A stretch of 64,000 bases of DNA from Torpedo marmorata (GCA_977017645.1 OZ360229.1:24304001-24368000), one strand, 5' to 3'. Positions 2,637 to 48,727 are shown, counted from the stretch's first letter. Notes: generated from the letters alone by a model not told the origin. A program made the numbers and translations.

Positions 2637-3025
2637 TATAAGTAACGGTGACTTCGCTCCACCAATAGTCACCTGGAGGCTAAGTGTGGTCCTTGCTTTT
2701 GACGCGTTTTATTTAATTTACTGACAAAGTCCAATATGTTCAAAAACCTTTATTTTCACACATGACTTGCAGTAATCTTCAATGACTTTAATATAAACAG
2801 TTCTTGTAAACGATGTATGATAAGTTCCTTTAAATTATTCCTTAAACAATTCCAAAATGATATGAAACACTGTAGATGATGTTAAAGTTATAGAAACATT
2901 ATAAAACGGTATAAAACGATATAAAACGGTCAATAAAGATGTGGAGACCAGACTCACCCCCCATACATCTCTATCCTTTCTTTGTTCTCTCTCTCTAATG
3001 GTTCTGCGCATGCTCCAACGCGCAT

Positions 3026-3108
3026 ACTACAATTCCCAGCCTCCCACGCGCACTATGACGTCACTCTATACTGCGCATGCGCCCGTCGGCACTCCCGCGC
3101 ATGCGCAT
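3026..3108. promoter_or_regulatory. LTR promoter motif cluster: ZNF143/THAP11-type site, CRE and NRF1 sites (also at +5600 in the 5' LTR)
   Basis: ACTACAATTCCCAGC at 3026-3040, TGACGTCA at 3056-3063, TGCGCATGCGC at 3072-3082 and GCGCATGCGCA at about 3097-3107. Confidence 0.6.
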
Positions 3109-3123
3109 ATCAAAGAACGGGCC

Positions 3124-3303
3124 GACGACGGCCCACAGAACAACGCAAGCGCTCCAAGGCCCGACGTGGCCTCGGAGCGCGCTGAGGACGGCCCAGTGAA
3201 CAACGCGAGCGCTCAATGGCCCGACGTGGCCCAGGAGCGCTCCGAGGACGGCCCACCGAACCACGCGAGCGCTCCAAGGCCCGACGAGACATCGGAGCGC
3301 CGC
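3124..3303. repeat. About 3 copies of a 60-bp CpG-rich tandem repeat inside the LTR (also 8724-8903)
   Basis: GAsGACGGCCCA...AAC.ACGC.AGCGCTC.A.GGCCCGACG...GGAGCGC recurs with period 60. Confidence 0.9.
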
Positions 3304-3542
3304 AACAACGGTAAGTTAACGAGCCTACGGCTCTTACACCGGCCCCTAATTATTATAATTAGACGTAATGTCTTGAATAATAATTACACTATAAATAATA
3401 ATAACCATAACATTCAAAACAATACAAATCTTCTTTCTTCCTTCTTCATAAATCTAGAGTTTACCATAACTCTGATTCAACAAAAGTCTGTAACCTGTGA
3501 AATGTACAACAACAAATAAAGTCAGTTTACATTTATCAAAGT

Positions 3543-3720
3543 TCCTCTGTCTCCAACAAAAGGCAGACCTTATTAATAGGTCTGTTTAGAAAACCAGTCT
3601 TAGTTTTAATTCGCACTTGACGCACAAGTCCTCTTTGTCTTGAAAAGTCTCAATAATCTTTTCCAAGTAACCAGGAATTTCTTGAAGTTGAACCATCCAT
3701 AACAATCACAATGTCTCTTT
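3543..3720 (-). pseudogene. Frameshifted BEL/Pao integrase C-terminal tail (DUF5641-like)
   Basis: Minus strand reads DIVIVMDGSTSRNSWLLGK / IIETFQDK / GLVRQVRIKTKTGFLNRPINKVCLLLETEE across frameshifts, the typical end of Pao pol. Confidence 0.85.
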
Positions 3721-3755
3721 AAAGTTCTTCCATCTTCACAATCCGAGTCAAAACG

Positions 3756-6700
3756 TTAACCAGTAAACCTCAAATCCTCCTCAGATAAAATAGATACAGT
3801 TTTTCTTTTGAATTTAACACAAGGCACTTCTTCAGCACGTCGTTTCACTTTATTCCTTTCTTCAGTATTCCACTTCTCATGTGAAGAATTTAAACTCTTA
3901 GAATTAGAATTTGAATATTTATCTGATTCTTTCGATTTTAAACAGGTCTGTTTAACCACTCTGGTTTCTAATGCTCTTTCCTGCAATTCTAAATCCAATT
4001 TCGCAATTTTCAATTCAGTCTCAGCTCCTTCCGAGAAATTAATAATTTGATCTGAAGTCAAAATATCATGCGATACATTGATAGTTCCATTGTCAATCCT
4101 GTTGCGGCATACTTGAAATTTTTTAATTTCTTCGTCTTGCTTGTTACATTTCTGCAATGCAATCTCACATTCTTTCTGCATTGTTAATTGTTGAACATTC
4201 AATTTACATTCTTGATTGGTTTTTAAAGTCAACTGTTTTGTGTTATTAACCAATAACTTGATCTCTTTCAAAACATTAATCTCTTCCTCCAACCTTTTAC
4301 ATTTTGATAATGCTGAATCTCTTTCCTCAATAATTGTATTCATTTCTTCAGCAGTTATTCTTTTCTTCCGCTTTCTGACTTTGCGAGTTTTACTTACAAT
4401 TAAATCCTTTTGTTTACTGTTTTCTTGATTATCTAATATTTCCAATTCCCCTTTCAACATTTTGTTCTCTGGATTCAATTGCATTGAATTATCATTCACA
4501 TTATTCTTTATTCCATCAGCACAATTTTCTGTGTTTTCCAGTTTTACATCACATTGTAATATTTCTTCATTAGCTTTGTCTGTTGTAATCTCTGAACTAC
4601 AAAATCTACATTCAGATTTGTTTTCAGTCACTTGTTTTATTCCTGTATCTGATTCAATTACACATGAATGATCAATAGTATTATTTGCAACATCTTCTAA
4701 TACTTCACTTTCATCCATTTCTGATGAAATTAATTTCTTTAATGTTGTTTTAAATACCACTGATTTATTTTTACATTGATCTGTTTTCTTTTCTTCATAA
4801 GTGATTTTCTTATTCACGGTTTTTTGCTCTTCTCTTAACTCTTCAAATTTCTCAACTGAAATTTTATTAACATTTATTGCTACCTGTTCCTGAGTAATAT
4901 CATTATTTCTTTCCATTGGTCCATTGATTGCCCAACCAAGTATGGTTCTAATAGCGTAAGGTCCATTCCTTTTACTTTCTATTACTTCTTTTGGTACCAA
5001 AACCTTTGGCACATCTGAACCAATCAGCATTTCTATTTCAGAATTAATTTCAGGTAAATAAACCTTCCACAGATAAGCTAAATGATGGATATCACTTTGA
5101 TGAGGAATATTTCCTTCGTTCACAGGCATAGTCTTCTGAGTATATACACTTGGAAGATCACAAAACTTTTTGTCATCCAATCCAGCAACCTCTAAGCCTG
5201 AAACAATGTTAGTTTCAACAACCTTTTCTTGTCCCATGGTCTTTAACATAATTCTTGATCTTTTTCCTTGAATATTAAGTTTATTCATTAGTCCTTCCGT
5301 GCAAAAAGATGCAGTGCTGCCTGGGTCTAAAAATGCATATGTTTTTACTATTACATCCCCTTTCTTGGCCTTGACTTGTACAGGCACTATTGAAAGTTTG
5401 CAGTTATTCACCCCGGCCCCAGTAAGACCACTTGTCTGAACCGAGGTTATAACATTATTTTCTGTTGTTTCCTTTGTTTCTGTTTGCTCCTTTTCCAATT
5501 CCTTGTTTCTGTTATGGATATGCAAAATTCTAGGATGTTTCAAATTGCATATGTTACAATTAATTCGCTTCTCGCAGTTTTTACTGATGTGCCCTTTACA
5601 CAAACAGCTAAAACATATTCCATTTTCCTTTAAGAAAGCGATCCTTTCCTTATGTTCCTTCCTTTCCAATTGTAAACACATTTCCAAAGCATGTCCACCT
5701 TTACAGAACAAACAACTCTTTTCATTAGGCAAACTTTCCTTTTCCTTATTTACTTTGTCCTTTTCTTTATTTATAACTTGCACATTAGTAGCAAAAGTAC
5801 TCCTTTTCACTTTCGGACTAGACTGTGAATTAGACTTCCTTACATCTTTGCTCATTGAATTATCTCTGATATTTCCATATAGTGGATCTGTTTCAACATA
5901 CACTTGTCGTTCAAGAAAATTTACCAAATCCTTTAAAGTAATTCTTCGACCATAATTTACTTGTAAATCACAAGCCAAATTTCTCCATCTATCCCATACC
6001 TTGTAAGGTAATTTTTCTAAAATGATTCGCATATTACTATGCACATCAAGCTCACGAATACCATCGATTTCTTCCATAGCATTACAACATCCTCTTAAAA
6101 ACAAAGTATATTCTTGCAAAGCCTTTACATCATTTTGTTTTATTGATGTCCATTTAAGAGCTTTATCCATATAAGCTAAAGCAATTCGATGTTTGTTGCC
6201 AAAATATTGTTCCAATAAATCCTTAGCTTTATCTAATCCTCTTCCTGAAGACATTTGATTACAACTTTTAACCAGTTCCTTTGGATGTCCCTTTGTAAAC
6301 ATTTCCAAATAATAAAGACATTCATCACGATCTTGGCATTTATCTTCAATATTGCGTTTGAAAGATCTCATAAATGATTGATATTGAAGTGGATCACCAT
6401 CAAAAGTTTGTATCTCTTTCTTGGGTAAAGAAGAGAGAGACTGTAACTGAAACAATGACGCAGCAATTTCATTTTGTCTTTCCTTGGATTTCAATACATT
6501 ACTCTGTTCACTGTCTCGTGTTGTATGCAATGTATCTGGAAACCTTACTGGTGTAGTTTCTTCCATATTTCTGATGCTTGACTCATATAACAAAGAATTT
6601 ACTTCGTTCGACCGGACCCAAGCCGCAGCTTTGCTTTCAGATGTTACTAATGGTACATGTGACTCGATACCAATATGCTCGTGAAAGGTTTGTCCTTGTA

Positions 6701-7832
6701 TATGTAAGTTTTGTATCCTTGGTTCTAAAATATCTATCCTTTTGGTTGGTTTCTTTTCCTGTGACTCCTTTTTTAAATATGACCTTTTATTATCAGACAA
6801 TTTAGATGATTTACTGCTAGCACCAGATACCATTGAGCCTTCTATTGCTTTCTTTTCTGCCTTGGCAATAGCAATGTTTGCTTCCAGCTCCTGCTGTTCT
6901 TTTCTCTTCCTTAGCTGCTCCTTCTCTTGTCTTAGCTGCTCCTTTAGCTGTTTCTCATTTTGTCTTAGCTGCTCCTCCTCTTGTCTTAGCTGCTCCTTTA
7001 GCTGTTTCTCATTTTGTCTTAGCTGCTCCTCCTCTTGTCTTAGCTGCTCCTTTAGCTGCTCCTCCTTTTGTCTTAGCTGCTCCTTTAGCTGCTCCTCCTT
7101 TTGTCTTAGCTGCTCCTTTAGCTGCTCCTCCTTTTGTCTTAGCTGCTCCTTTAGCTGCTCCTCCTTTTGTCTTAGCTGCTCCTTTAGCTGCTCCTCCTTT
7201 TGTCTTAGCTGCTCCTTTAGCTGCTCCTCCTTTTGTCTTAGCTGCTCCTCCTCTTCTTCCAAAATATATTTATCCTTAAGCGTTTTTTGTTGTGCAATAA
7301 GAGCGGCCAATTTAACATCAATCCTTGTACGTGACGATGCAGAACTTGAAGTACGAGAAACTCTGGAGCTTGAACCAGAACTTCTTTTGCTTCTCCTGCT
7401 TTCAGCATTTGAGACACTGTCACTTGCTTGTATTTCGTCCTGCATTTCATATGTTGTCTTCATACTTACCTCTTTATCCAATTCGAATTGTATATCCTTT
7501 GCATCTTCAACCAATTCAATTTCTTCCTCATTTGGTGACACAATTTCAGCCATTTCCAAGTTATCTTCTTGTTCAAATAATGAAGCTGCCTCTTCATCCT
7601 TTGCCAGCTTCAATCTTTCAATAAGAACCTTTTTATTTCCACTTATGTCCTTATTCAGTCGCTTCAATTCTTCTTTAATATCCGAAACCTTCATGTCTTC
7701 AATACGTTGGTCCTCAACAGCAACATCAGCGGTTGCTGCGTCAGCTGCTGATAAATCAGTAGCTGCTGTATCAGTGGCTGCTGCGGCCATTTTACTCGTC
7801 TTGTTCCTCTTTCCTTCAAGCATACACAACAC
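3756..7832 (-). CDS. Chimeric polyprotein: SAP domain, hendecad coiled coil, Pao Gag (DUF1759-like, three Zn knuckles), Pao aspartic protease, MIPOL1-like coiled coil; no RT/RH/IN
   Basis: Uninterrupted 1358-aa frame; the probable start is the strong-Kozak AAAATGGCC at 7790. Motifs: LPKKEIQTFDGDPLQY, CLFCKGGHALEMC, CFSCLCKGHISKNC, CNICNLKHPRILH, TYAFLDPGSTASF, RTILGWAINGP. These are followed by RITAEEMNTIIEERDSALSKCKRLEEE. Confidence 0.9.
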   Translation of the reverse strand: MLCMLEGKRNKTSKMAAAATDTAATDLSAADAATADVAVEDQRIEDMKVSDIKEELKRLNKDISGNKKVLIERLKLAKDEEAASLFEQEDNLEMAEIVSPNEEEIELVEDAKDIQFELDKEVSMKTTYEMQDEIQASDSVSNAESRRSKRSSGSSSRVSRTSSSASSRTRIDVKLAALIAQQKTLKDKYILEEEEEQLRQKEEQLKEQLRQKEEQLKEQLRQKEEQLKEQLRQKEEQLKEQLRQKEEQLKEQLRQKEEQLKEQLRQEEEQLRQNEKQLKEQLRQEEEQLRQNEKQLKEQLRQEKEQLRKRKEQQELEANIAIAKAEKKAIEGSMVSGASSKSSKLSDNKRSYLKKESQEKKPTKRIDILEPRIQNLHIQGQTFHEHIGIESHVPLVTSESKAAAWVRSNEVNSLLYESSIRNMEETTPVRFPDTLHTTRDSEQSNVLKSKERQNEIAASLFQLQSLSSLPKKEIQTFDGDPLQYQSFMRSFKRNIEDKCQDRDECLYYLEMFTKGHPKELVKSCNQMSSGRGLDKAKDLLEQYFGNKHRIALAYMDKALKWTSIKQNDVKALQEYTLFLRGCCNAMEEIDGIRELDVHSNMRIILEKLPYKVWDRWRNLACDLQVNYGRRITLKDLVNFLERQVYVETDPLYGNIRDNSMSKDVRKSNSQSSPKVKRSTFATNVQVINKEKDKVNKEKESLPNEKSCLFCKGGHALEMCLQLERKEHKERIAFLKENGICFSCLCKGHISKNCEKRINCNICNLKHPRILHIHNRNKELEKEQTETKETTENNVITSVQTSGLTGAGVNNCKLSIVPVQVKAKKGDVIVKTYAFLDPGSTASFCTEGLMNKLNIQGKRSRIMLKTMGQEKVVETNIVSGLEVAGLDDKKFCDLPSVYTQKTMPVNEGNIPHQSDIHHLAYLWKVYLPEINSEIEMLIGSDVPKVLVPKEVIESKRNGPYAIRTILGWAINGPMERNNDITQEQVAINVNKISVEKFEELREEQKTVNKKITYEEKKTDQCKNKSVVFKTTLKKLISSEMDESEVLEDVANNTIDHSCVIESDTGIKQVTENKSECRFCSSEITTDKANEEILQCDVKLENTENCADGIKNNVNDNSMQLNPENKMLKGELEILDNQENSKQKDLIVSKTRKVRKRKKRITAEEMNTIIEERDSALSKCKRLEEEINVLKEIKLLVNNTKQLTLKTNQECKLNVQQLTMQKECEIALQKCNKQDEEIKKFQVCRNRIDNGTINVSHDILTSDQIINFSEGAETELKIAKLDLELQERALETRVVKQTCLKSKESDKYSNSNSKSLNSSHEKWNTEERNKVKRRAEEVPCVKFKRKTVSILSEEDLRFTG
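6905..7252 (-). repeat. In-frame 33-bp tandem repeat encoding (EQLRQKEEQLK)n
   Basis: TTGTCTTAGCTGCTCCTTTAGCTGCTCCTCCTT repeated, with 21-bp variant units; the frame is preserved throughout. Confidence 0.95.
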
Positions 7833-8236
7833 TAGTCAAACAACGGTCCCCAATGGACCAGCGGCAGCAATTCCAATCTGTGTTCTTACTTGCTAAAGAT
7901 ACACAGAAGGAGTCCACAGACTTATGCCTACCACTTCTAATGACTGTAATGTGCTGCAATCCTTAAACGAGTTTCAACCACAACATCCGTCACTAATATC
8001 ACTGATATTCCAAAAATAGTTTCTCCAACGTATTTATAGGACACTTTTCTATAAGATTTGAAGCTTTAAATCACTCTCTGGCTGTTATTCATGGCAGATG
8101 GATGTAGATTACAAACTGCCCCCAACTCGAGGCATCTCCAAAATGGCCACCAATTTATATCAGTCCAAAGCACAGAGAGTTTTTTCTATCTTCTTTCCTT
8201 CAAACTTCTGTTCCAAACAGCCAGCCCTTTATTGAC

Positions 8237-8938
8237 TATAAGTAACGGTGACTTCGCTCCACCAATAGTCACCTGGAGGCTAAGTGTGGTCCTTGCTTTT
8301 GACGCGTTTTATTTAATTTACTGACAAAGTCCAATATGTTCAAAAACCTTTATTTTCACACATGACTTGCAGTAATCTTCAATGACTTTAATATAAACAG
8401 TTCTTGTAAACGATGTATGATAAGTTCCTTTAAATTATTCCTTAAACAATTCCAAAATGATATGAAACACTGTAGATGATGTTAAAGTTATAGAAACATT
8501 ATAAAACGGTATAAAACGATATAAAACGGTCAATAAAGATGTGGAGACCAGACTCACCCCCCATACATCTCTATCCTTTCTTTGTTCTCTCTCTCTAATG
8601 GTTCTGCGCATGCTCCAACGCGCATACTACAATTCCCAGCCTCCCACGCGCACTATGACGTCACTCTATACTGCGCATGCGCCCGTCGGCACTCCCGCGC
8701 ATGCGCATATCAAAGAACGGGCCGACGACGGCCCACAGAACAACGCAAGCGCTCCAAGGCCCGACGTGGCCTCGGAGCGCGCTGAGGACGGCCCAGTGAA
8801 CAACGCGAGCGCTCAATGGCCCGACGTGGCCCAGGAGCGCTCCGAGGACGGCCCACCGAACCACGCGAGCGCTCCAAGGCCCGACGAGACATCGGAGCGC
8901 CGCAACAACGGTAAGTTAACGAGCCTACGGCTCTTACA
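8237..8938 (-). repeat. 5' LTR of the BEL/Pao element (702 bp)
   Basis: Matches 2637-3338 and is flanked by the TSD GATGG at 8939-8943. Confidence 0.95.
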
Positions 8939-9276
8939 GATGGAATATATTCTGAGTTAGTTGTGTCAACCCCTCTTTACATATGTAGCCTGAAACTTGC
9001 TCTAGGTGTGATTTTACCAGGGTCCTCTTGGTTCTGGGAGACTGATGTGCTGTTAGGGTGCCCTCGATTAGCTTGTGCTCTTAATTGGTCAGTTCTCTGT
9101 TGTGAGGTACTCACTGAAGTGGCTGTAGTTTGAGGAAGCAGACTTGGATGAATTGGGGAAGAGTGTGCCTGAGAGCTGGAGGTTGCAGGAGACCTGATAT
9201 TCTTAATTCACTCATCTCAATCCTACCCAGATTATGTGAGCACCATTGTAGCCCCCAGATCCCCACTGAAGCTGGC

Positions 9277-17712: not shown

Positions 17713-20377
17713 ATTTTTATTTATTTTGTAAGGTGCTTTATATGAAGGTTTGCACTATGATGCTGCCGCAAAACAACAAATTTCGTGACATGCTCATGAC
17801 AATAAATTCTGAGTCTGAAAATTCTTTAAGAGAGAACTGAGGGGCAATGTTTCAATTAGAGTAGTTTTTAAAAAATTTTAAAAATATTTTATTTAAAATT
17901 TTTAATCACAAAATACATAAAATAGAATATAAAATTATCAAATTATTTATGACACATTTTCACCCCCCTCCCTCCCTCCCCTCCCCAACCCCCCCCACCC
18001 CCACTAATCTAATAAAAATATAATAAAAAGTAATAAAGAAAAAAGAAAGAAAGAAAAAGATAAAGTAAGGGGAATGCCATCTAGAAACTAATTCTATTAT
18101 GGAGGTCAAGTGTGCCAGTAGATCCGATATCCAGAGATCTTCAAATCCTTAAACCAACAGCTTTCATATATGGGCTCCAAATTTTTAAGAAAAAATGATA
18201 TTTATTACGTAAATTATAAGTAATTTTTTCAAGTGGTATACACGAACGAAGTTCTGCATGCCATCTTTCTAATCCTAAATCTAAATCAAATTTCTAAGTA
18301 ATAGCAATGCATTTTTTTGAAACAGCTAAAGCAATTCGCAAAAATTCTATTTGATACATATTTAATTTCATCTTAATGCTAAATTTTCTAATATCTCCAA
18401 ACAAAAATATCATAGGATCCATTGGGAATGTAATTTTAAATACTTTATCTAAATTTTTTTTAACTTTAAACCAAAAATCATAAACTTTTGGACAAAACCA
18501 TGTAGAATGTACAAAAGAACCTTCTTCTTTATTACATCTAAAACATAAACCTGAAAGTGTCGGATTAAATTTCTTTAATTTTTTAAGTGTTAAATATAGT
18601 TGATGAAAAAAATTATACTGTACTAATCTGTATCTAACATTAATAATCTTCGTCATACTAAATTTGCATAATTCTTTCCAATGATTTTCATCTATTCTTA
18701 CATTCAAATCTAATTCCCATTTTAATCTTGATTTATGTAATCCTATTTTAGGCAATTTCCTCTGAAACAATTTATACATTTGAGAAATAAATTTATTAAC
18801 ATCTCCATTAGTAACTAATAATTCTAATTCATTTTGTCTTGGTAGAATCAAAGCATAACCTAATTTCTCAATCAAAAAAGATCTAATTTGATAATAAGCA
18901 AAAAGTGTATTATCTGATATATTAAATTTATCTTTCATTCTTTGAAAAGTAATAAATTTCCCAGCTTCAAAACAATCTTTAATCTTTTTAATACCTTTTT
19001 GAAACTAAATTTTAAATAATTGATTATTAACAGTAAATGGAATAAGTCCATTTTGATATAAAGGCATCCTTGAAGAAATCAATCCTTTTCCACCTATTTC
19101 CTTATCTGTCTTGTTACATATTTCTAACAAATGTTTAAAAATAGGCGAATTTTTTTTTTTGTTGATATTAATTTAGAATCCCATTTATAAATAATTTCTT
19201 CTTTGGAGTCATCACCTATATTATTTAATTCTATTTTAATCCAAGCAGGAGATTTAGTTGAATCAAAAAATTCATTAACAAATTTTAATTGAGCTGCTTT
19301 ATAATAATTTTGAAAATTAGGAAGTTGTAAGCCACCCATTTCATAATTCCAAGTTAATTTTTCCATACCTACTCTTGCTAACTTTCCTTTCCATAAAAAT
19401 TTCCTAATAATTGAATTTAAATCTTTAAAAATTTTTTGAGGAATTCCATAAGGAATTGATTGAAAAAGATATTGAATTCTTGGAAAAATATTCATTTTAA
19501 TACAGTTTACTCTTCCCATTAAAGTTATAGGTAAATCTTTCCAATTTTCTAAATCTTTCTTTATTTTCACAAATAATGGTAGATAATTTAATTTATATAA
19601 ATTAGCCAATTTTGTATCAGCCCTTACTCCTAAATATTTAATTCCTTCCCTTGCCCATTTAAATTGTGTAATTTCTTTACATCTACTATAATCCCCTTGT
19701 GATAATGCCATAATTTCACTTTTATCAGAATTAATTTTATATCCAGATATTTCCCCATATTCTCTCAATAAAATAGACAATTGTACTAAAGATGTAATAG
19801 ATTTTGTCATATATATCAATACATCATCTGCAAACAAACTAATTTTATGTTCTTCCATTCCAACTTTAATACCAACTATTTTAGGATCTTTTCTAACTAA
19901 TTCAGCCAAAGGTTCTATCGCCAAAATAAATAATGCTGGTGACAAAGGACATCCCTGTCTAGTAGATCAAGTCAAAAGAAATTTTGGAGAAATTTGTCCA
20001 TTTGTAACTACTTTAGCCGATGGTTCTTTATATATAGTTTTAATCCAATTAATAAATGTATTTCCAAAGCCAAATTTCTCCAGTACCTTAAATAAAAAAT
20101 TCCATTCTACTCTATCAAAAGCCTTTTCAGCGTCTAATGTTAAAACTAATGGTAAATCTTCCTTCTTTTTATGTAAATTAATTAAGCTAATCAATCTAGC
20201 TATATTATCTTTTGAATATCTATTTTTAATAAAACTAGCTTGATCTACATGAATTAAATCTGGTAAATAATTAGCCATTCTATTTGCTAAAATTTTTGCC
20301 ATTATCTTATAGTCTACATTTAATAATGAAATAGGTCTATAAGATTCAGTTTTCAATATATCTCTATCCTTCTTTGG
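17713..20377 (-). mobile_element. 5'-truncated fish-type L1 (ORF2 RT to C-terminal zinc knuckle, disrupted) with about 150 bp of extra 3' sequence
   Basis: SYRPISLLNVDYKI, LDAEKAFDRVEW, LFADDVLIY and CFRCNKEEGSFVHSTWFC, with stops and frameshifts. TSD TCAAGTGCTCATT at 17700-17712 and 20378-20390. Confidence 0.9.
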
Positions 20378-26322: not shown

Positions 26323-27283
26323 ATTTGTGGAACTCACTGAATAATCCATCATGGCATTTTGATCCTGCAGAGTTCATTCCCTTCGTTAACATACTCACCC
26401 ATACACAGGGTCCCTTATACAGTAAAACTCCTGGTATCTGGAATTCAATCAACTGGCAGCCTCAAGCAACTGGCAAAAAAATTGAGGTAAATAAATAAAT
26501 AAAAAATAAGATAAATAAGAATGAAATAATAGGTAAAAAATACGTAAGTTTAAAATTGTAAAAGTAAATGTTCTCTGAAGTAACACATAAACCTTTGGTG
26601 AAGATGGGAGCAAATATTCAGCCAGCGGAGTGCCTTGGTCGTGCTTTGCTCGTAGCAGCTGTTTGAATAAAGTTGTGTGAAACAGCAATGGCATCGCCCA
26701 GGATGAAGAGCTGCCGTTGGGATGACTCTTACTGCTTAGTAAGAATCACCCCAGTTAGAGGCTTTGTCTATAAACTTGGGGGAGGGGGAGTTAATTATCT
26801 ATAATGTTATTGTTCGCCTTTTGGGTGGCCCCGTGGAGGAGGAGGAACCTGCCGATGCAGTGACGGTTAAATGTTTTCAAAGAATGTTACTGAAAATAAA
26901 GTAAAATGCTTTAAGGTTTATATTGTAGCGGCCCGCGAGCTGATCGGCGACCCGCCGCACAAAATGGCGGTCGAACTCGGCGATCGCGCCAGGACCACAG
27001 GGACTAAACGGCCTTCTTGCAGCAGCTCCAGTCGACTGGCGGGAAACGACGAGCACCGGCGGGTAAACCGACCAATCAGTGGCCGGCCCGTCGGTGACGT
27101 CATCTCCGCCGGAAGAGGCGGGTCTCTGGGTCTGCTGGCCCTATATAAGGCAGAGCCAGAGCCCTAATAAACCAGACTCACTTATACTCACCTCGTTTGT
27201 GTGTGTGTGATTCTTCTCGACGCAGCCGCAGCACGCTACATTGGTGACCCCGATGGGTCTGAACGGTGTTTTCAGACCCAGCG

Positions 27284-27950
27284 ATGACGGACCAGGCAAG
27301 CATCCACGCGGTCGCCCTGAAGCTACCGACCTTCTGGACAACACAGCCACAGGTCTGGTTCAAGCAAGTCGAGGCTCAATTCCAGATCCGACAGATCTCC
27401 TCCAACGCCACTCGGTACTACTACGTGGTGAGCTCGCTGGATCAAGACACAGCGGCCAGAATCGTCGACTTCCTCCGGCACCCACCAGAGCAAGGGAAGT
27501 ATGAGGCCATGAAAGAGCTGTTGACCTGCACCTTCGGGCTCTCAAAGCGCGAGCGCGCAGCCCGATTGTTGCACATGGTCGGGTTGGGGGACAGGGCCCC
27601 ATCCGTCCTCATGGGCGAGATGTTAGCGCTCGCCGATGGCCATAAACCTTGCCTGATCTTCGAGCAGATATTCTTGGAGCTATTGCCAGAGGATATCCGA
27701 TTGCTGCTGGCTGACGAGGATTCAACGACCTAAGGAAGGTGGCAGCCCAGGCAGACGTGCTCTGGAAATCGAAGAGGCACTTTGACGTTGTGGTGGAGTA
27801 CATCGCCAAGCCCCGCATGCAGCGAGCGACAAGGCCGCCGGCCACACGCGACAGCCAAATGGACACTGCGGGTGAGCAGTGCTGTTTCTACCACCAGCGA
27901 TGGGGTGCGGAGGCCCGCTGATGCCGCCCACCCTGCGCGTTTCTGGGAAA
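27284..27950 (+). pseudogene. Gypsy gag, disrupted, with a CHCC motif
   Basis: ALKLPTFWTTQPQVWFKQVEAQF at the N-terminus. CFYHQRWGAEAR*CRPPC (Cx2Hx9Cx3C) at 27883-27936 contains a stop, and there is a frameshift near 27725. Confidence 0.85.
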
Positions 27951-30900
27951 TGCCACGGCCGGCCGTCGTTAATGGCTGTGGCAGTTGGCCAACGAGACAG
28001 CCTGCTCCACGTGTGGGATTCACTGTCAGGACGGCGGCTCTTGGTCGACACCGGAGCCGAAGTCAGCGTCCTCCCGCCCTCGGCACATGACATCCGCAAC
28101 AAGCGGCCAGGCCCGTCGTTGAGAGCAGCAAACTGCTCCACCATAAGGATGATCGACACGCGTACCGTGCCGCTCCGTTTCAGCGACAGCCGATTCACGT
28201 GGACTTTTACACTCGCCGCAGTGGAACAACCACTCCTGGGGGTGAATTTCCTCAGGGCATATTGCCTACTGGTGGATCTCAAAGGGCGAAGGCTGGTCCA
28301 CGCTAAGACCTTCCAGTCCTTTCCCCTGAGGAAAGCCGAGTTACCCGCCCCCAACCTCCATTCCGTCACCGCCGACCGCAATGAGTCCTCGTGAATCCTC
28401 GCCGGATTCCCATCTATCGCGGTACCACAGTTCACCTCCGCCGGGCCCAAACACGGGGTGCAACACCACATCCTTACCGAGGGCCCTCCCCTCCACGCTA
28501 GGGCATGCCACCTGCCCCCGAAAAGCTGAGCTTAGCCAAAGAGGAGTTCAGGAAGATGGAGGAACTGGGGATTGTGCACAGGTCCGACAACCCCTGGGCA
28601 TCCCCCCTACACATAGTGCCAAAAGCAGCAGGAGGGTGGAGACCGTGCAGGGACTTCTGACACCTGAATGAGGCAACCACGCCAGACCGATACCCCGTGC
28701 CCCACATACAGGATTTCACCGCAAACTTACAGGGAGCACGGGTCTTCTCCAAGGTTGACCTCATCAGATGCTACCACCAGATCCCGGTCCACCCCGAGGA
28801 CATAGCTAAAACCGCCATCATAACACCCTTTGGTTTGTTTGAGTTCCTAAGGATGCCCTTTGGGCTAAAAAACGTGGCTCAAACGTTCCAGAGGTCGATG
28901 GACAGGGTGGGCCGGCACCTCGATTTCGTATTCAGCTACCTCGATGACATACTGGTGGCTAGCCGCAACCGCGAAGAACATGCGACGCACATACGGCAGC
29001 TGTGCTCCCGCCTCAGAGACTTCAGCCTGACCATCATCCCGGCCAAGTGCCAGTTCGGGCTAGACACTATTGACTTCCTGGGCCACAGGATTAGCAAACA
29101 CGGGGTGACACTGCTACCTGAGAAGGAAGAGGCTGTCAGGTGCTTCAGCAAGCCACACATGGTGAAGGGCCTCCAGGAGTTCGCCGGTATGATCAACTTT
29201 TACCGCCGTTTCATACCGGCGGCAGCCCGCATCATGCGCCCGCTTATTCGCCTTGATGGCTGGCAAGAAGAAAGAGGTGGAGTGGGACAAGGAAGCATTG
29301 GAAGCGTTCCAGAGGGCCAAAGACGCCCTGGCCAATGCCACACTTCTGGTGCACCCGCGGACAGACGCCCCGACTGCCCTCACGACAGATGCCTCCAACA
29401 CAGTGGTTGCAGGGGTACTTGAGCAACAGGTGGATGGACAATGTCAGCCCTTAGCCTTCTTCAGCAGGCATCTGCGGTCACCCGAGCTCAAGTACAGTGC
29501 TTTCGACCGGGAACTGCTAGCTCTTTACCTAGCGGTACGACACTTCCGATACTTCCTAGAGGGCAGGCAGTTCACGATTTTCACCAATCACAAACCACTG
29601 ACCTTCGCCTTCAACAAGGTGTCGGACCCATGGTCGGCCAGTCAACAAAGGCACCTGTCCTATATATCCGAGTTCACCACGGATATTCAACATATCGCCG
29701 GAAAGACTAATGTGGTTGCTGATGCTTTATCACGCCCTACAATCCAGGCAAAACAGGCACTGTCCCAAGGGGTCAACTTCACAGCGTTGGCCCAAGCACA
29801 GCTGCAAGACCCTGAGATCCCCACGTACAGAACGGCGGTGACAGGATTTAAACTAGAAGACATCGCCATTGGGCCCGGCAGCCAGACTCTACTCTGCGAC
29901 ATGTCAACGGGTAAACCCGGCCCCGTCGTCCCCGCGGCATGGAGACTCCTAACGTTTGACACGGTGCATAACCTGGTGCACCCGTCGATTAAGACCATGG
30001 TCAGGATGGTAGCCAACAGGTTCGTGTGGCACGGTCTCCAGAAACAAGTCAGCCAGTGGGCAAGAACCTGCACACACTGCCAGACGTCTAAGGTACAGAC
30101 GCATGTCAAGGCGACCCCCCCCCCCCAAATCATTCGAGCCGGCACGACGGAGGTTCAGCCATGTCCACGTTGACATCGTTGGCCCCCTGCTGGTATCGAG
30201 AGGGGCGTGGTACCTACTGACAATGGTAGACCGCCTTACGAGGTGGCCGAAAGTGGTTCCGCTGGCAGAGACCTCAACGGGGACTTGTGCCAGAGCCCTC
30301 ATCGACACATGGGTGGCTTGATTCGGAGTCCCGGAACACCTGACTTCTGACAGGGGTGCGCAGTTCACTTCGGGATTCTGGACAACCATAGCTAACCTCT
30401 TGGGAACCCTGCTCCACCACACCACGGTTTACCACTCCCAGGCCAACGGACTGGTAGAGCGGTTCCACCGGTACCTGAAGGCAGCCCTGATGGCCCGCCT
30501 TAAAGGACCACGCTGGACAGACGAACTACCGTGGGTACTTCTGGGAATCCGAACGTCGCCCAAAGAGGACCTCGATACCTTGGCAGCGGAGTTGGTGTAC
30601 GGCGCACCCCTGGTTATCCCTGGCAAGTTCCTGGCCAGTGCCAGGGGCACAGATGACACACCGGCGGCTACCCTCAAAAGGCTCTGAGAGCGGCTGGGGA
30701 CACTGGCCCCATCACAAAACACACCGCACGGCCACCCGAAGACTCATGTGCCCAAGGACCTACTCAACTGCAGGTTTGTTTTTGTGCGACGAGGAGCACA
30801 TCGGCCGCCGCTGCAATGACCTTACGAGGGGCCCTACAAGGTGATCCAGCACAACGGATCAACATGTGTGCTGGACATCGGAGGCAAGGAAGAGACATTC

Positions 30901-31010
30901 ACAATAGACTGCCTTAAGCCAGCACACATCGACGCCAGTCAACCGGTCATCACACCAGCCCCACGCCGCAGAGGCAGGCCGCCGAAAGCACGGGACACCG
31001 CCACGATCGC
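27950..31010 (+). pseudogene. Gypsy pol (PR-RT-RNase H-IN) with multiple frameshifts and stops
   Basis: LVDTGAEVSV, RMPFGLKN, YLDDILV, TDAS, YSAFDRELLA, HPSIK...CTHC, QANGLVERFH and YEGPY. Confidence 0.9.
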
Positions 31011-32351
31011 CGATTCTGGTGGGGAGTCGTGTAGCGGCCCACGAGCCGATCAGCAACCTGCCGCACAAAATGGCGGTCGAACTCGGCGATCGCGCCAGGA
31101 CCACAGGGACTAAATAGCCTTCTTGCAGCAGCTCCAGTCGACCGGCGGGAAACGACGAGCACCGGCGGGAAAACCGACCAATCAGTGGCCGGCCCGTCGG
31201 TGACGTCATCTCTGCCGGAAGAGGCGGGTCTCCGGGTCTGCTTCTCGATGCAGCCGCAGCGCTACAACATGCAAGTGAAGTTTGTTCAGTGTGAGTACAG
31301 AATAGTATTTTTGTCTTTTAAACTGTTTATTCTTAATGCAGGTTTATTAGTTAGGCATTGTAAGAGTAAGTCTCAAGTAACTGGAAAAAACACTTATCCG
31401 GCATCTACCAATCCCCATAGATGCTGCATACCAGGGGGTTTTCTGTAATTGCATTTAATTGCCCATCCCTAATTGCCCTCAAAATTTGTGCAATTGTATT
31501 TGGCAGTCATCAGCCATCTGGGTTCTATGGCCAGGAATCCCCTCTTTTAAGTGTCTGCTCATTTCTCTTGACCTCTCCAATGAACTTTATTTTTGGACAA
31601 GATGTCAAATCGAGGCCCTGTTTGCTCCAATGATCATCTGGCACTACTTGTTAAAACCACGGGAACTTCTGTTATCCTGACTATTTTTTATCTGGAGACG
31701 AACAGATTTTAAATTGCATTTTAAAAAATCAACATCCGATTATTATTTGAGAGACCTTGAGTATGTTTAAAAAAAAGTCTCCCAAGTTCCTCACTCAGTA
31801 CTTTTGAGAGATCCCGAGGTTGTGCGATTTGCTGTTTAAATCCAAGTTCTTTCTGGTTTTCCTTTTAATTGAAGATTTCTTTAACTCCATCTTATTCACT
31901 ACTCACTCAATACCTCTACTATTTATTCTTTTGAGGCAATCCCAGCTCACTTTTAATATATCCTTGCTAACTTGCTGATCTGTTGAACATGGTTATTCTT
32001 TATTGTCTCATCATCATCTTGCCATGATTTCATTACCTTGTTCTTATTTTGTAATCTTTATGATATTTTTAAGTACTTTTGTCAAACCTGTAGGGCCAAA
32101 ATGAAGAACCCTTTAATTTAACTTGTTATCTGCGACATTCTGAGATTTGAAGCAGTTTCTCTTTTAATGGTAGATGTTAATCCTGTGTAATTTGCAATCC
32201 CAATGTTTAAAAATATCTAGTTGTTGGTCCAGAGTCTGACGTGCTGATTTATTTCCTTCTTTCTGTTCAATTAGTTCAGTCTCCTTCCTAATCTGTTTGA
32301 ACCCATGCTGGAGTCCTGATTTTTTGTAATAACTTTCCTTTCTGTTCGTTT

Positions 32352-33566
32352 TTCAAAATCAGAATTTATTGTCGTGAGCGTGTCACAAAATTTGTTGTTT
32401 TGCGGCAGCATTACAGGAGTAAAATTGCTATAAATTACATTTAAAAAAAATAAATGAATTAGTGCAAAAAGAAGAGAAAAATTAGGTAGTGTCTGTGGTT
32501 CATTGTTCATTCAGAAACCTGATGGACGAGGGGAAGAAGCTGTTTTTGTACCTTTGAGTCTTCAGACTCCTGTACCTCCTTCCGGATGGTAGCAGTGAGG
32601 GCATGGCCTGGGGGTGAGGGTCCTTGAGGATAGAGGCTGCTTTCTTGAGACACCGCCTCTTGTAAATGTCCTTAATGGAGTGAAGACTGATGCCCATGAT
32701 GGCGCTGGCAGAGTCTTTTCCTGTCCCGTGCATTGGCACCTCCGTACCAGACAGTGAAGCAACAAGTCAGAATGCTCTCTACTGTACACCTGTAGAAATT
32801 TGCAAGAGTCTTTGGTAACATACCAAACCTCCTCAAACTCCTCACAAGGTATAGCCACTGGCGAGCCTTCTTCATGGTGCCATCGACGTGGAGGCTCCAA
32901 GAAAGATCTTGAGAGATGTTGACACCCAGCAATTTGAAGTTCTTAATCCTTTCCACTGTCGACCCCTCGATGAGAACTGGTTTGTGTTCTCCTGATTTCC
33001 CCCTCCTGAAGTATACAATAAGTTCCTTAGTTTTGCTAACTTTGAGTGCAAGTTTGTTGTTGTGACACCATTCATCCAGCTGACCTATCTCACTCCTGTA
33101 CGCTTCCTCATTGCCTTCTGTGATTCTGCCGACAACCGCGGTGTCCTCGTCAAATTTGTAGATGACATTTGAATTGTGCCTAGCCACAGAGTCATGAGTG
33201 TAGAACATGTAGAGCATGCATCCTTGAGGTGCGCCTGTGTTGATTGTCAGTGAGGAGGACATGTTGTTTCCGATTCATACTGACTGTGGTCTTCTGATGA
33301 GGAAGTCAAGGATCCAGTTCCAGAAGGAGGTGCAGAGGCCCAGGCTTTGAAGCTTGCTGACCAGTACTGAGGGTATGATTAAGTTGAAAGCCGAGCTGTA
33401 GTCAATGAAGAGTAGCTTGATGTACATGTTGCTGTTTTTCAGGTGATCCAGGGCTGAGTGGAGAGCCAGTGAGATTGCATCTGCTGTGGAGAGATTATAG
33501 CAGTAGGCAAATTGTAGTGGGTCCAGGTCTTAGGTACGAATTAATTCTGGCCATGACCAACCTCTC
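32352..33566 (-). mobile_element. Rex1/Babar-like LINE 3' fragment (RT, decayed)
   Basis: INTGAPQGC, YKFDEDTAVVGRI (degenerate FADD) and FYRCTVESILT..WYG, with a 3' tail at 32352. Confidence 0.85.
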
Positions 33567-37051: not shown

Positions 37052-37812
37052 ATGGCTGATCTGATCAATGACCTAACTCCACCTACCTGCCCTTTCCCCA
37101 TATCCCCTAATTCCTTTTTCATGTAAAAATCTATCCAACTGAACTTTAAATATGTTCAATGAAGCAGCCACAACCACTTCCCTGGGTAGAGAACTCCACA
37201 AATTCACCACTCTTTGGGAAAAACTGTTTTTCCTCATCTCTGTCCTAAATCTACTCCCCCGAATCTTGAGGCTGTGTCCCCAAGTTTTGGTCTCACCCGC
37301 CAGTGAAAAAAACCTTCCTACCTCTATCCTATCCATCCCCTTCATAATTCTATATGTTTCTATAAGATCTCCTCTCATTCTTCTGAACTCAAGCGAGTAT
37401 AATCCCAGATGATTTAATCTTTCTTCATAGGTCAACGCCTTCATCTCAGGGATCAACCTAGTAAACCTCCTCTGGACTGCCTTCAAGGCCAGTATATCCT
37501 TCCTCAAATACGGAGACCAGAACTGCACACAGTACTCCAGGTGCGGTCTCACCAGTACCTTGTACAGTTGCAACATTACCTCCTTGCTCCTGAATTCAAT
37601 TCCTCCAGCGATGAACGCCAACATTCCATTTGCCTTCTTAATAACCTGCTGCACCTGCAACCCAACTTTTTGCGATTCGTGCACAAGCACTCCCAAGTCC
37701 TTCTGCACAACAGCATGCTGCAGTTTTTCACCATTTAAATAATACTCTGCTCTTTTATTTTTCTTGCCAAAGTGGATAACCTCGCACTTACTAACATTGT
37801 ACTCCATCTCCA
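37052..37812 (-). mobile_element. CR1-like LINE ORF2 3' fragment
   Basis: KCEVIHFGKKN, LYKVLVRPHLEYCVQFWSPY and LGLYSLEFRRMRGDLIE. Confidence 0.9.
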
Positions 37813-37877
37813 TCGCCAATATTGTCTCCTTGTTGAAATCCCTCAGCCCCCTTTTCACCATATCCTATAACACAAAT

Positions 37878-46727: not shown

Positions 46728-48727
46728 CAGAATCAGAATTTATTGTCATGAACATCAAGTCCAGTCAAGTCAAGTCACCTTTATTTGTCGTTCATTACCA
46801 TATACACAGTAAGACGAGATAGCGTTTCTCCAGGACCATGAGCAAATGTACATAAATATCATAATACAATAGAAAAACTATAACATGCTAATACACATAT
46901 ATATCTAAAAATTGAGGAGCCTGATGGCTTGGGGGGAAAAACTGTTGCACAATCTGGACGTATGAGCCCGAATGCTTCGGTACCTCCTTCCAGATGGCAA
47001 AAGGGAAAAAAGTTTACCAAAGGGGTGTGAGAAGTCCTTCACAATGTTATTAGCCTTCCTCATGCATTGTGTGTTGTAGATGTCCGTCATGGTGGGAAGA
47101 GAGACACCAATATTTTTTCCGCTGACCCCACTATCCTCTGCAGGGTCTTTCGGTCCGAAATGGTACAGTTTCCAAACCAAGCGGTGATGCAATTTCTCAG
47201 AATACTCTCAATACATCCCCTGTAGAATGTAGTAAGGATAGAGGGTGGAAGATGAACTTTCCTCAGCCTTCGCAGGAAGTAAAAGCGCTGCTGGGCTTTC
47301 TTGGCTATGGAACTGGTGTTGAGGGACCAGGTGAGATTCTCCGCCAAGTGCACTCCAAGAAACTTGGTACTCTTTACGACCTCAATGGTAGAGCCGTCCA
47401 TGGTCAATGGAGAATGATCCCCCCAGGCCCTCCTGAAGTCGACAACCAACTCTTTTGTTTTATTTACATTCAGATGCAGGTTGTTGGCTCCGCACCATTC
47501 CATTAGCGACTGCACCTCATCTCTGTATGCTCACTCATCGTTCTTGCTGATAAGGCCCACCACGGTTGTATCATCAGCAAACTTTATGATGTGATTCGAG
47601 CTGTGTTTTGCTGCACAGTCATGAGTCAGCAGAGTGAACAGCAATGGACTAAGCACACAGCCTTGGGGAGCCCCCGTGCTCAATGTAATGACCTTAGAAG
47701 TGCTGTTTCCAATCCGGACTGCCTGAGGTCTTCCCGTCAGGAAGTCTAGAATCCAATTACAGAGGATGTTATTTAGGCCCAGGCCGCTCAACCTCCCTAT
47801 CAGGTACTGAGGTATGATCGTGTTGAATGCTGAGCTGAAATCAATAAACAGCATTCGAACATACGCGTCCTTATTTTCCAGGTGGGTGAGGGCTAGATGG
47901 AGGGTGGTAATGATGGCATCATCTGTGGAGCGGTTTGATCTATATGCGAACTGCAGGGGGTCCAGTGAGGGGGGCAGCAGAAGCTTGATGTGCCCCATGA
48001 CGAGCCTCTCGAAGCACTTCATGACAGTAGATGTGAGTGCGACAGGGCGGTAGTCATTGAGGCAGGACACCATCGACTTCTTCGGCACGGAGACGATGGA
48101 AGCGGCTTTGAAGCACGTTGGAACCAAGGCACTGCTCAGGGAGATGTTAAAGATGTCGGTGAGAACATCTGCCAGCTGGGCCGCACATCCCCTGAGCACT
48201 CTGTCGGGAATGTTATCTGGACCAGCAGCTTTCCGTGGGTTAACCTTGCTTAACACTCTCCTCACGTCGGCCACTGTAAAACATGTCACAAAATTAGTTG
48301 TTTTGCAGCAGCACTACAGTACAAATATTGCTATAAATTACATTTAAAAATAAATAAATAGTGCAAGAAAATGGGAGAAAGTGAGGTAGTGTCTGTGGTT
48401 CATTGTTCATTCAGAAATCTGATGCCAGAGGGGAAGGAGCTGTCCTTGTGCCACTGAGTGCTCGTCTTCAGGCTCCTGTACCATATTCCTGATGGTAGCA
48501 GAGTGAAGAGGGCATGGCCTGGGTGGTGGGGGTCCTTGAGGATAGAGGCTGCTTTCTAAAGGCACCACCTCTTGTAAATGTCATTGATGGAGTGAAGTCT
48601 GGTGCCTGTGATGTCACTGGCTGAGTTAACAACTCTTTGGAGTTTTTTCCTGTCCTGTGCATTGGCACCCCCATACCAAATAGTAATGCAACCAGTCAGA
48701 ATGCTCTCCACAGTACATCTGGAGAAA
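46728..48727 (-). mobile_element. Outer Rex1/Babar-like 3' fragment (46728-46755 plus 48281-48727)
   Basis: TCAGAATCAGAATTTATTGTCATGAACAT resumes at AACATGTCACAAAATT..., matching the uninterrupted copies at 14858 and 32352. Confidence 0.75.
46756..48280 (-). mobile_element. Rex1/Babar-like LINE (RT, 5'-truncated) nested in the tail of another Rex-like element
   Basis: [46 protein letters not shown] and [17 protein letters not shown] is duplicated at 46751-46755 and 48281-48285. Confidence 0.88.

Follow-up and report, generated by a model that had tools for sequence, protein, structure and literature searches.

Acutely transforming retroviruses are replication-defective and helper-dependent, and carry host coding sequence fused in frame to gag. 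A comparable arrangement was suggested for the ray Torpedo marmorata: in a stretch of 64,000 nucleotides (GCA_977017645.1, OZ360229.1:24304001-24368000; C41:24304001-24368000 in our naming of the 6.2-Gb genome), hereafter the window, the first-pass annotation described a BEL/Pao long terminal repeat (LTR) retrotransposon whose reverse transcriptase (RT), RNase H and integrase had given way, in frame, to a coiled coil resembling the host protein MIPOL1. It was proposed that this cargo had been captured, probably from mRNA, and might be kept by selection on a fusion from which the element's own protease could release it. The locus raises the questions of which host RNAs the foreign frame was made from, how an element lacking a polymerase multiplies, and why the frame has stayed open.

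The element is a freshly inserted BEL/Pao LTR retrotransposon on the minus strand at 2637-8938, with the target-site duplication GATGG at 8939-8943, on the outer side of the 5' LTR, and at 2632-2636. Its LTRs, at 8237-8938 (5', with 60-bp tandem repeats inside) and 2637-3338 (3'), are each 702 bp long and 100% identical; they end in TG...TA (window 2637-2642 and 8237-8242) instead of the usual TG...CA, as is the case in most of the cargo-bearing family and its helper. A single open reading frame (ORF) of 1359 amino acids (aa) from stop to stop (3756-7835, minus strand, first ATG at 7823) contains gag, protease and host cargo. Gag starts with a SAP domain (7608-7703; PF02037, over the Pfam cut-off) in both the cargo-bearing and the autonomous families, and continues with a Glu/Gln/Lys coiled coil encoded by a 33/21-nt tandem repeat (6878-7282) and a CCHC zinc knuckle (5574-5615). 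The aspartic protease region (4917-5345), with LDPG at 5330 and WAINGP ending at 4917, gives a weak Pfam match below the cut-off, and is followed by a final pol-derived stretch (4824-4916), the match to the autonomous sister stopping at 4824. As had been stated in the first-pass annotation, the frame stays open for about 385 aa past WAINGP, ends at a stop at 3756-3758, and is followed closely by an out-of-frame remnant of the integrase C-terminus (3717-3539, the DUF5641 region of the helper); the motif and Pfam search of the 1359 aa likewise agreed with it in finding no YxDD and no RT, RNase H or integrase core domain. The window element is a non-autonomous derivative without these enzymes of its own. 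A polypurine-tract-like sequence (3339-3358), identical in autonomous sisters, precedes the 3' LTR, and the sequence 3' of the 5' LTR is also common to the window element and these sisters. A Pfam search of the window cargo gave no usable model.

The resemblance to MIPOL1 proved specific. Protein matches cover cargo residues 150-300; 109 of 257 candidates passed, the best (E 2.6e-28) coming from the electric ray Narcine bancroftii, and the named passing matches are all MIPOL1 except one JGI entry with the same Pfam pair. We located the host MIPOL1 gene on C40, where about 320 kb between exons A and I was examined and exon ends were set at GT-AG; against its spliced exons the MIPOL1 part of the window is 79.6% identical at the DNA level over 382 nt, and it crosses host exon-exon junctions as anticipated. 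This confirms that host MIPOL1 sequence was captured from an RNA that had been spliced. MIPOL1 was only part of the answer, supplying about 150 of the roughly 355 host-derived residues, while BRCA1 and Elongin A make up the remainder. For the sequence before MIPOL1, a search of 1.84 billion representative sequences returned three matches, all named BRCA1 of cartilaginous fishes. The BRCA1-derived block of the window (4400-4828, minus strand) consists of three pieces out of two host exons, is 77-85% identical to the host gene on C61, and, read in the retained BRCA1 frame, agrees with skate BRCA1 in 45% of amino acids across 165 columns; in older copies of the family it comprises four spliced host exons, 87-100% identical. 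In older copies, the stretch that follows MIPOL1 exceeds the Pfam cut-off for Elongin A and corresponds to five consecutive host exons on C41 with the introns gone (91-98% identical). In the window two pieces of it are left (3745-3957, minus strand; 78-82% identical to the host exons), within which the ORF stop falls, and the young family as a whole lacks the PF06881 region of the older copies, which we take to be the Elongin BC-binding box. For the Elongin A exon missing in the window copy, exon skipping was considered, and a deletion between similar exon ends was preferred. A second, intron-containing Elongin A-like gene (C25:175318134-175337565; L152, L153) has about 68-77% DNA identity to the captured exons and is not the donor.

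All three host pieces are in sense orientation and in their own native frames, and in one older copy the frame continues across all of them to the integrase stop. Their junctions are identical in the copies examined, later deletions apart, which places the three captures before the spread of the family. The younger pol-to-BRCA1 junction has 6 nt of microhomology (CAGCAA), the Elongin A-to-integrase junction another 6 nt (ACAGAC, as judged against the present-day helper) and the BRCA1-to-MIPOL1 junction 2 nt of microsimilarity, and short unassigned linkers are present at the oldest pol-to-BRCA1 junction and at the MIPOL1-to-Elongin A junction. No copy with one or two of the genes and a junction of its own was found among 26 loci selected for Elongin A, in which missing parts look like later deletions or insertions. 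The older copy L047 carries an extra RT-region piece directly before BRCA1, suggesting that the first capture point lay further into pol.

The family to which the window element belongs is real, very large and recently mobile. A search of the genome with the cargo DNA gave 1826 first-look candidates, and all 40 that were scored were 99-100% identical, on many contigs. In 700 kb not chosen for carrying a cargo copy (70 stretches, mostly introns, of which 60 came from the donor-gene regions and the Elongin A paralogue and 10 were arbitrary) there are seven cargo copies and one RT match; scaled to the genome, this sample gives an estimate of about 60,000 cargo copies (Poisson range 25,000-128,000). 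Among 20 young copies taken from the best matches, 17 carry a single ORF, 1230-1378 aa long, another has it split and two could not be parsed; 11 have a clear 5-bp target duplication, and in 17 of the 18 with both LTRs the LTR pair differs by 0-1 mismatches in the aligned part. Older copies in which both LTRs could be recovered have pairs with about 87-95% identity. In the MIPOL1 tree the older cargo copies form a star-like pattern with tips of 0.01-0.04, pointing to a large early burst, and the young lineage ends a path of about 0.2 substitutions per site, which fits many rounds of reverse transcription. Contigs from four public sequencing runs cover the cargo region, and runs labelled organisms B, C and E (labels, not established species) cover it; in run X1 the summed contig depth reaches millions over the cargo and about 10 at a single-copy intron, a comparison that does not give a copy number. 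Run X6, which we guess to be RNA, covers intronic repeats and has no spliced joint at two uncaptured BRCA1 exons, and is silent on expression. In protein collections, a search for fused proteins of 747-2379 aa returned among 1756 candidates only one bird MIPOL1-like protein, and for the whole cargo of an older copy the best 120 of the 399 matches listed were all MIPOL1 or Elongin A proteins. Since repeats are usually masked before genomes are annotated, these protein searches do not show the family to be absent from other rays.

A few copies stand apart in their location or structure. Four (L065, L066, L074 and L081) lie within introns of the host MIPOL1 gene, in both orientations (C40:64325001-64635000). 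The MIPOL1 block is repeated in tandem, in units of 405 nt, at L043:6835-7954 (C42); the units match one another and a neighbouring copy at 99.8-100%, and are either a recent duplication or an assembly artefact. A side subfamily (L178-L180, on C62 and C396) sits on a long branch of its own, with MIPOL1 89-92% identical to the host, and combines a retained Elongin A domain region with the younger pol-to-BRCA1 junction.

Intact relatives that could supply the missing enzymes are present in the same genome. We examined 20 loci with the BEL RNase H domain, chosen in part for their long frames; in 11 of them one ORF, 2018-2134 aa long, encodes RT, RNase H and integrase, and none of the 20 has a MIPOL1 match. 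The sister element L120 has a single gag-pol ORF in the order protease, RT, RNase H (PF05380), integrase and DUF5641; the window is 94.8% identical to it over 8938-4824 and 96.1% over 3717-2637, and its 5' LTR is 97% identical to the LTR of L120, so that LTRs and gag-protease are shared with the sister family at 94-97%. The older cargo copies are mostly 66-79% identical to the window in gag-protease. A protease tree (51 of 65 rows, without 14 near-identical young copies) places both young and middle-aged cargo copies among autonomous elements (support 100/100 for the young) and rejects monophyly of the cargo copies (p-AU 2.3e-7); the MIPOL1 tree, by contrast, has the young copies branching off inside the older cargo group. 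In addition, the integrase tail of the young form exceeds that of the old form by about 130 nt, which is beyond what deletion alone gives; together with the trees this shows recombination of the cargo with the helper family after capture, the cargo having evidently moved to a newer helper backbone at least once. Copying of the cargo element in trans by the intact sister family is likely.

Selection on the cargo was assessed separately for residues and for the frame. Over 354 aligned codons, comparison of the host pieces with the window copy gave dS 0.34, dN 0.20 and dN/dS 0.60, against 0.66 (0.48-0.92; P=0.31) in neutral simulations with the observed base-change spectrum, whereas the gag-protease control gave 0.32-0.34 against a neutral 0.52-0.87. 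The MIPOL1 part reached 0.82 (neutral 0.62), and BRCA1 (0.48, P 0.11) and Elongin A (0.50, P 0.16) lean below their neutral medians. The bootstrap range of 0.45-0.93, from an alignment in which two host exon joins were off by one, indicates limited power, and weak constraint on the cargo residues may exist, none having been detected in this dN/dS test. Changes on the host branch would act to lower dN/dS, not to raise it. A functional cargo released as in acutely transforming retroviruses, as the first-pass annotation had envisaged, is thus not supported by these ratios; its suggestion of selection on the fusion holds for the open frame and fails for the residues. There are no internal stops in the 354 codons where 11.3 are expected, none of 2000 simulations was stop-free, and the only stop in the aligned cargo of young copies is the terminal one. 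In a comparison of 54 loci, 13 of the 18 indels that occur in at least three copies preserve the frame, against 24 of the 103 that are private (Fisher p about 1e-4); three of the 13 (in 26-39 copies) may be host-side changes, which would leave 10 of 15. Five shared indels are frameshifts, as are most indels found in two copies (12 of 13), and large in-frame deletions take out different cargo parts in different subfamilies. The open frame is demonstrably under selection in the replicating lineage.

We give a probability of roughly two in three to the overall reading that these elements are non-autonomous gag-protease retrotransposons with host cargo, copied by a helper, and that their frame is kept for a reason at the RNA level. 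Capture would have occurred by template switching of the reverse transcriptase, in the particle, onto co-packaged host RNAs, following the model set out in the available text of PMC5131818. For MIPOL1 the template was likely a back-spliced circular RNA, as argued below, and mobilisation would be in trans by the pol-bearing sister family. What selection demonstrably maintains is a frame that stays open from gag almost to the 3' LTR. Nonsense-mediated decay is a known hazard of an early stop. If translation stopped right after the protease, the untranslated 3' part would be long, and the RNA might be exposed to such decay or to poor translation-linked packaging; in-frame host coding sequence would serve as a ready-made stop-free filler whose residues drift and which in-frame deletions shrink. 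This role as filler is probably the reason for the persistence of the cargo. The RNA-level reason leaves unexplained both the dominance of cargo copies over simple short deletion derivatives and the survival of about 1.1 kb of cargo across about 0.2 substitutions per site.

An unlikely competitor is a functional accessory protein, in which the polyprotein would release a host-derived chimera of basic clusters and the MIPOL1 coiled coil, to which older lineages would add the Elongin A region, aiding nuclear entry, particle assembly or host evasion. Such a protein would fit the sense orientation and native frames of the three pieces, the nearly undeleted MIPOL1 F-G-H-B part of the window (379 nt with one 3-nt gap), the persistence of the cargo through backbone swaps, and the predominance of cargo copies over pol-bearing ones (7 to 1 in the 700 kb, and 57,436 to 6,618 first-look candidates, which are not copy numbers, in genome searches with MIPOL1 protein and the BEL RNase H domain). 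Stop avoidance, however, accounts for the native frames by itself; dN/dS is not below neutral either overall (0.60 versus 0.66) or for MIPOL1 (0.82 versus 0.62), different subfamilies have lost different cargo parts through the large in-frame deletions, and the young family does without the PF06881 region. In a wider form of the idea, which we regard as doubtful, BRCA1, a circular RNA and Elongin A would have given the retrotransposon an accessory gene of its own making, and either the product or the RNA would favour the cargo form over the helper; if this were true, the edge so gained would explain the several-fold excess over the helper and the survival through backbone swaps, and the cargo-bearing form may fill several percent of the 6.2-Gb genome.

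A further peculiarity is the order of the MIPOL1 exons. The match had been described as colinear, which it is not: downstream exons F (part), G and H, intronless, come first (4102-4406, minus strand), and are followed by part of exon B and part of exon C (3957-4098, minus strand) with an 81-nt in-frame deletion between them, two blocks that are swapped in the pairwise alignment. At the back-splice-type junction (4099-4102, minus strand), the donor end of exon H is joined exactly to the upstream acceptor of exon B, with the CAG of a tandem acceptor, making a non-colinear junction that is precise at the splice sites; in the window the joint lies at 4102/4101 and is aligned without gaps. Older copies have three extra bases, CAG, at this joint, the same as those between the tandem acceptors before host exon B, and in 9 of 28 older loci the H-CAG-B junction appears with no other mismatch in the 30 columns displayed. 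Host exons B-H total 777 nt and, when closed to a circle, form one stop-free frame (780 nt with CAG). The 28 older copies are 92.5-95.7% identical to one turn of this circle, most of them in a single alignment from the middle of exon F through G, H, B and C into D, with five junctions, and a few in interrupted form. Genome searches with exons A and I match the host locus only, MIPOL1 matches in the copies are confined to exons B-H, and the host locus has only one copy of each of these exons, with no second set now lying between exons A and I. That the ends fall exactly on splice sites, that nothing from A or I is present and that the host has a single exon set argue for a back-spliced circular RNA, which was very probably the MIPOL1 template; the proposal of capture from mRNA stands as regards splicing and loss of introns, and in all probability fails as regards a linear template. 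The exons could also have been scrambled by a jump from one linear mRNA template to another, by trans-splicing, or through a tandem duplication of exons B-H that the host once had. The ends of exons H and A, both AG, offer a 2-nt microhomology, the element demonstrably rearranges at microhomologies, and the available text of PMC4897178 warns that non-colinear junctions can arise from other causes. Any such origin is nevertheless improbable, as both breakpoints fall exactly at splice sites, including the tandem-acceptor CAG, while the six outer capture ends lie mid-exon or have short linkers; all captured MIPOL1 sequence is within exons B-H, and no second copy of these exons exists today between host exons A and I.

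Two of the three donors are core nuclear genes. This would suit a small-RNA shield, under which silencing of the element would also strike host BRCA1 and Elongin A mRNAs and the host would temper its response, as would the 87-100% identity of older copies to host exons and their large early burst. We consider it very improbable that such a shield maintains the family, as the currently active copies are about 20% diverged from the host genes, which would weaken cross-targeting, and as a shield would work without the open frame that has been kept; it could have helped the early burst. A silencing conflict of this kind has been proposed for maize in the portion of bioRxiv 10.1101/777037 available to us. 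An assembly artefact or chance resemblance, for which nothing speaks except the low complexity of coiled coils, has a negligible chance of being correct in view of the exon-resolution DNA matches to three host loci, the 40 of 40 scored matches at 99-100% across many contigs, the clear target duplications in 11 of 20 young copies and the coverage of the cargo region by contigs of four public runs.

The family resembles acutely transforming retroviruses in being a helper-dependent defective element with host sequence in frame with gag, and differs from them in that no envelope gene is seen, three fragments are carried instead of one domain, and no selection on residues was detected. The single ingredients are already known from the maize element Bs1, LTR retroposition and circular RNA pseudogenes. 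Like the present family, Bs1 is described in the available text of PMC13317346 and PMC5131818 as an LTR element with segments of three host genes and a chimeric reading frame. In contrast to Bs1, which is there a chimeric gene proposed to serve its host, the present element is a vertebrate BEL/Pao retrotransposon, with one donor exon-scrambled and likely taken from circular RNA, and is a mass-amplified, recently mobile parasite that swaps backbones. LTR-mediated retroposition, including the co-retroposition of two genes by the Pao element BATUMI in Drosophila, was described by Tan et al. 2016 (PMC5131818), and here too intronless partial host sequence, from three genes, lies between parts of an LTR element. 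According to the accessible part of that report, such retrocopies share with the present family the partial spliced host pieces, microsimilarity at some of the switch points, several parental genes, in-frame products and secondary non-autonomous mobilisation; they are young copies at one or a few sites, the older ones mostly broken (14 of 21), unlike the present family, which has an estimated tens of thousands of copies and a lineage that has preserved its frame over about 0.2 substitutions per site. Circular RNA-derived pseudogenes were reported by Dong et al. 2016 (PMC4897178), whose available text describes 33 high-confidence circRFWD2 copies in mouse with LTR-enriched flanks, and calls the mechanism mysterious and the copies pseudogenes. 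These share with our case multiple copies, a link to LTRs and a back-splice junction kept in genomic DNA, here at exact splice sites and with no parental sequence beyond exons B-H. The present junction differs from them, as that text presents them, in being part of the reading frame of a gag-protease element whose helper is known, and in an estimated copy number about a thousandfold higher.

Among gene-capturing LTR elements the family stands out by its joint of circular-RNA type, by the host pieces from BRCA1 and Elongin A, by its scale and by selection that acts on the frame only. Our survey of the literature on gene capture, circular RNA retrocopies and BEL/Pao elements found no report of the family, or of such a combination or scale; most subscription journals and repeat databases lay outside it, and the repeat tables of a genome paper could hold the family. 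The locus would tie circular RNA retroposition to a defined element, with a back-splice junction in frame inside a gag-protease LTR retrotransposon that has an identified helper family, and it indicates that host-gene capture in a vertebrate can produce a dominant, recently mobile family and not just a few dead retrocopies. The fragments of BRCA1, MIPOL1 and Elongin A, in their tens of thousands, make it possible to test whether silencing small RNAs cross-hit essential host genes, and the same family allows one to test why non-autonomous elements keep long open frames. The copies will confound annotation, read mapping and circular RNA calling for BRCA1, MIPOL1 and Elongin A in the T. marmorata genome.

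The window also contains other elements. At 26924-31242 there is a GC-rich LTR element, presumably gypsy-like; its direct repeats (95%) are at 26924 and 31030, its RT-like frames at 28661-30170. The segments at 18297-19966, 32675-33274, 37076-37864 and 47534-48313 are, as we take them from their translations, LINE-like reverse transcriptase fragments.
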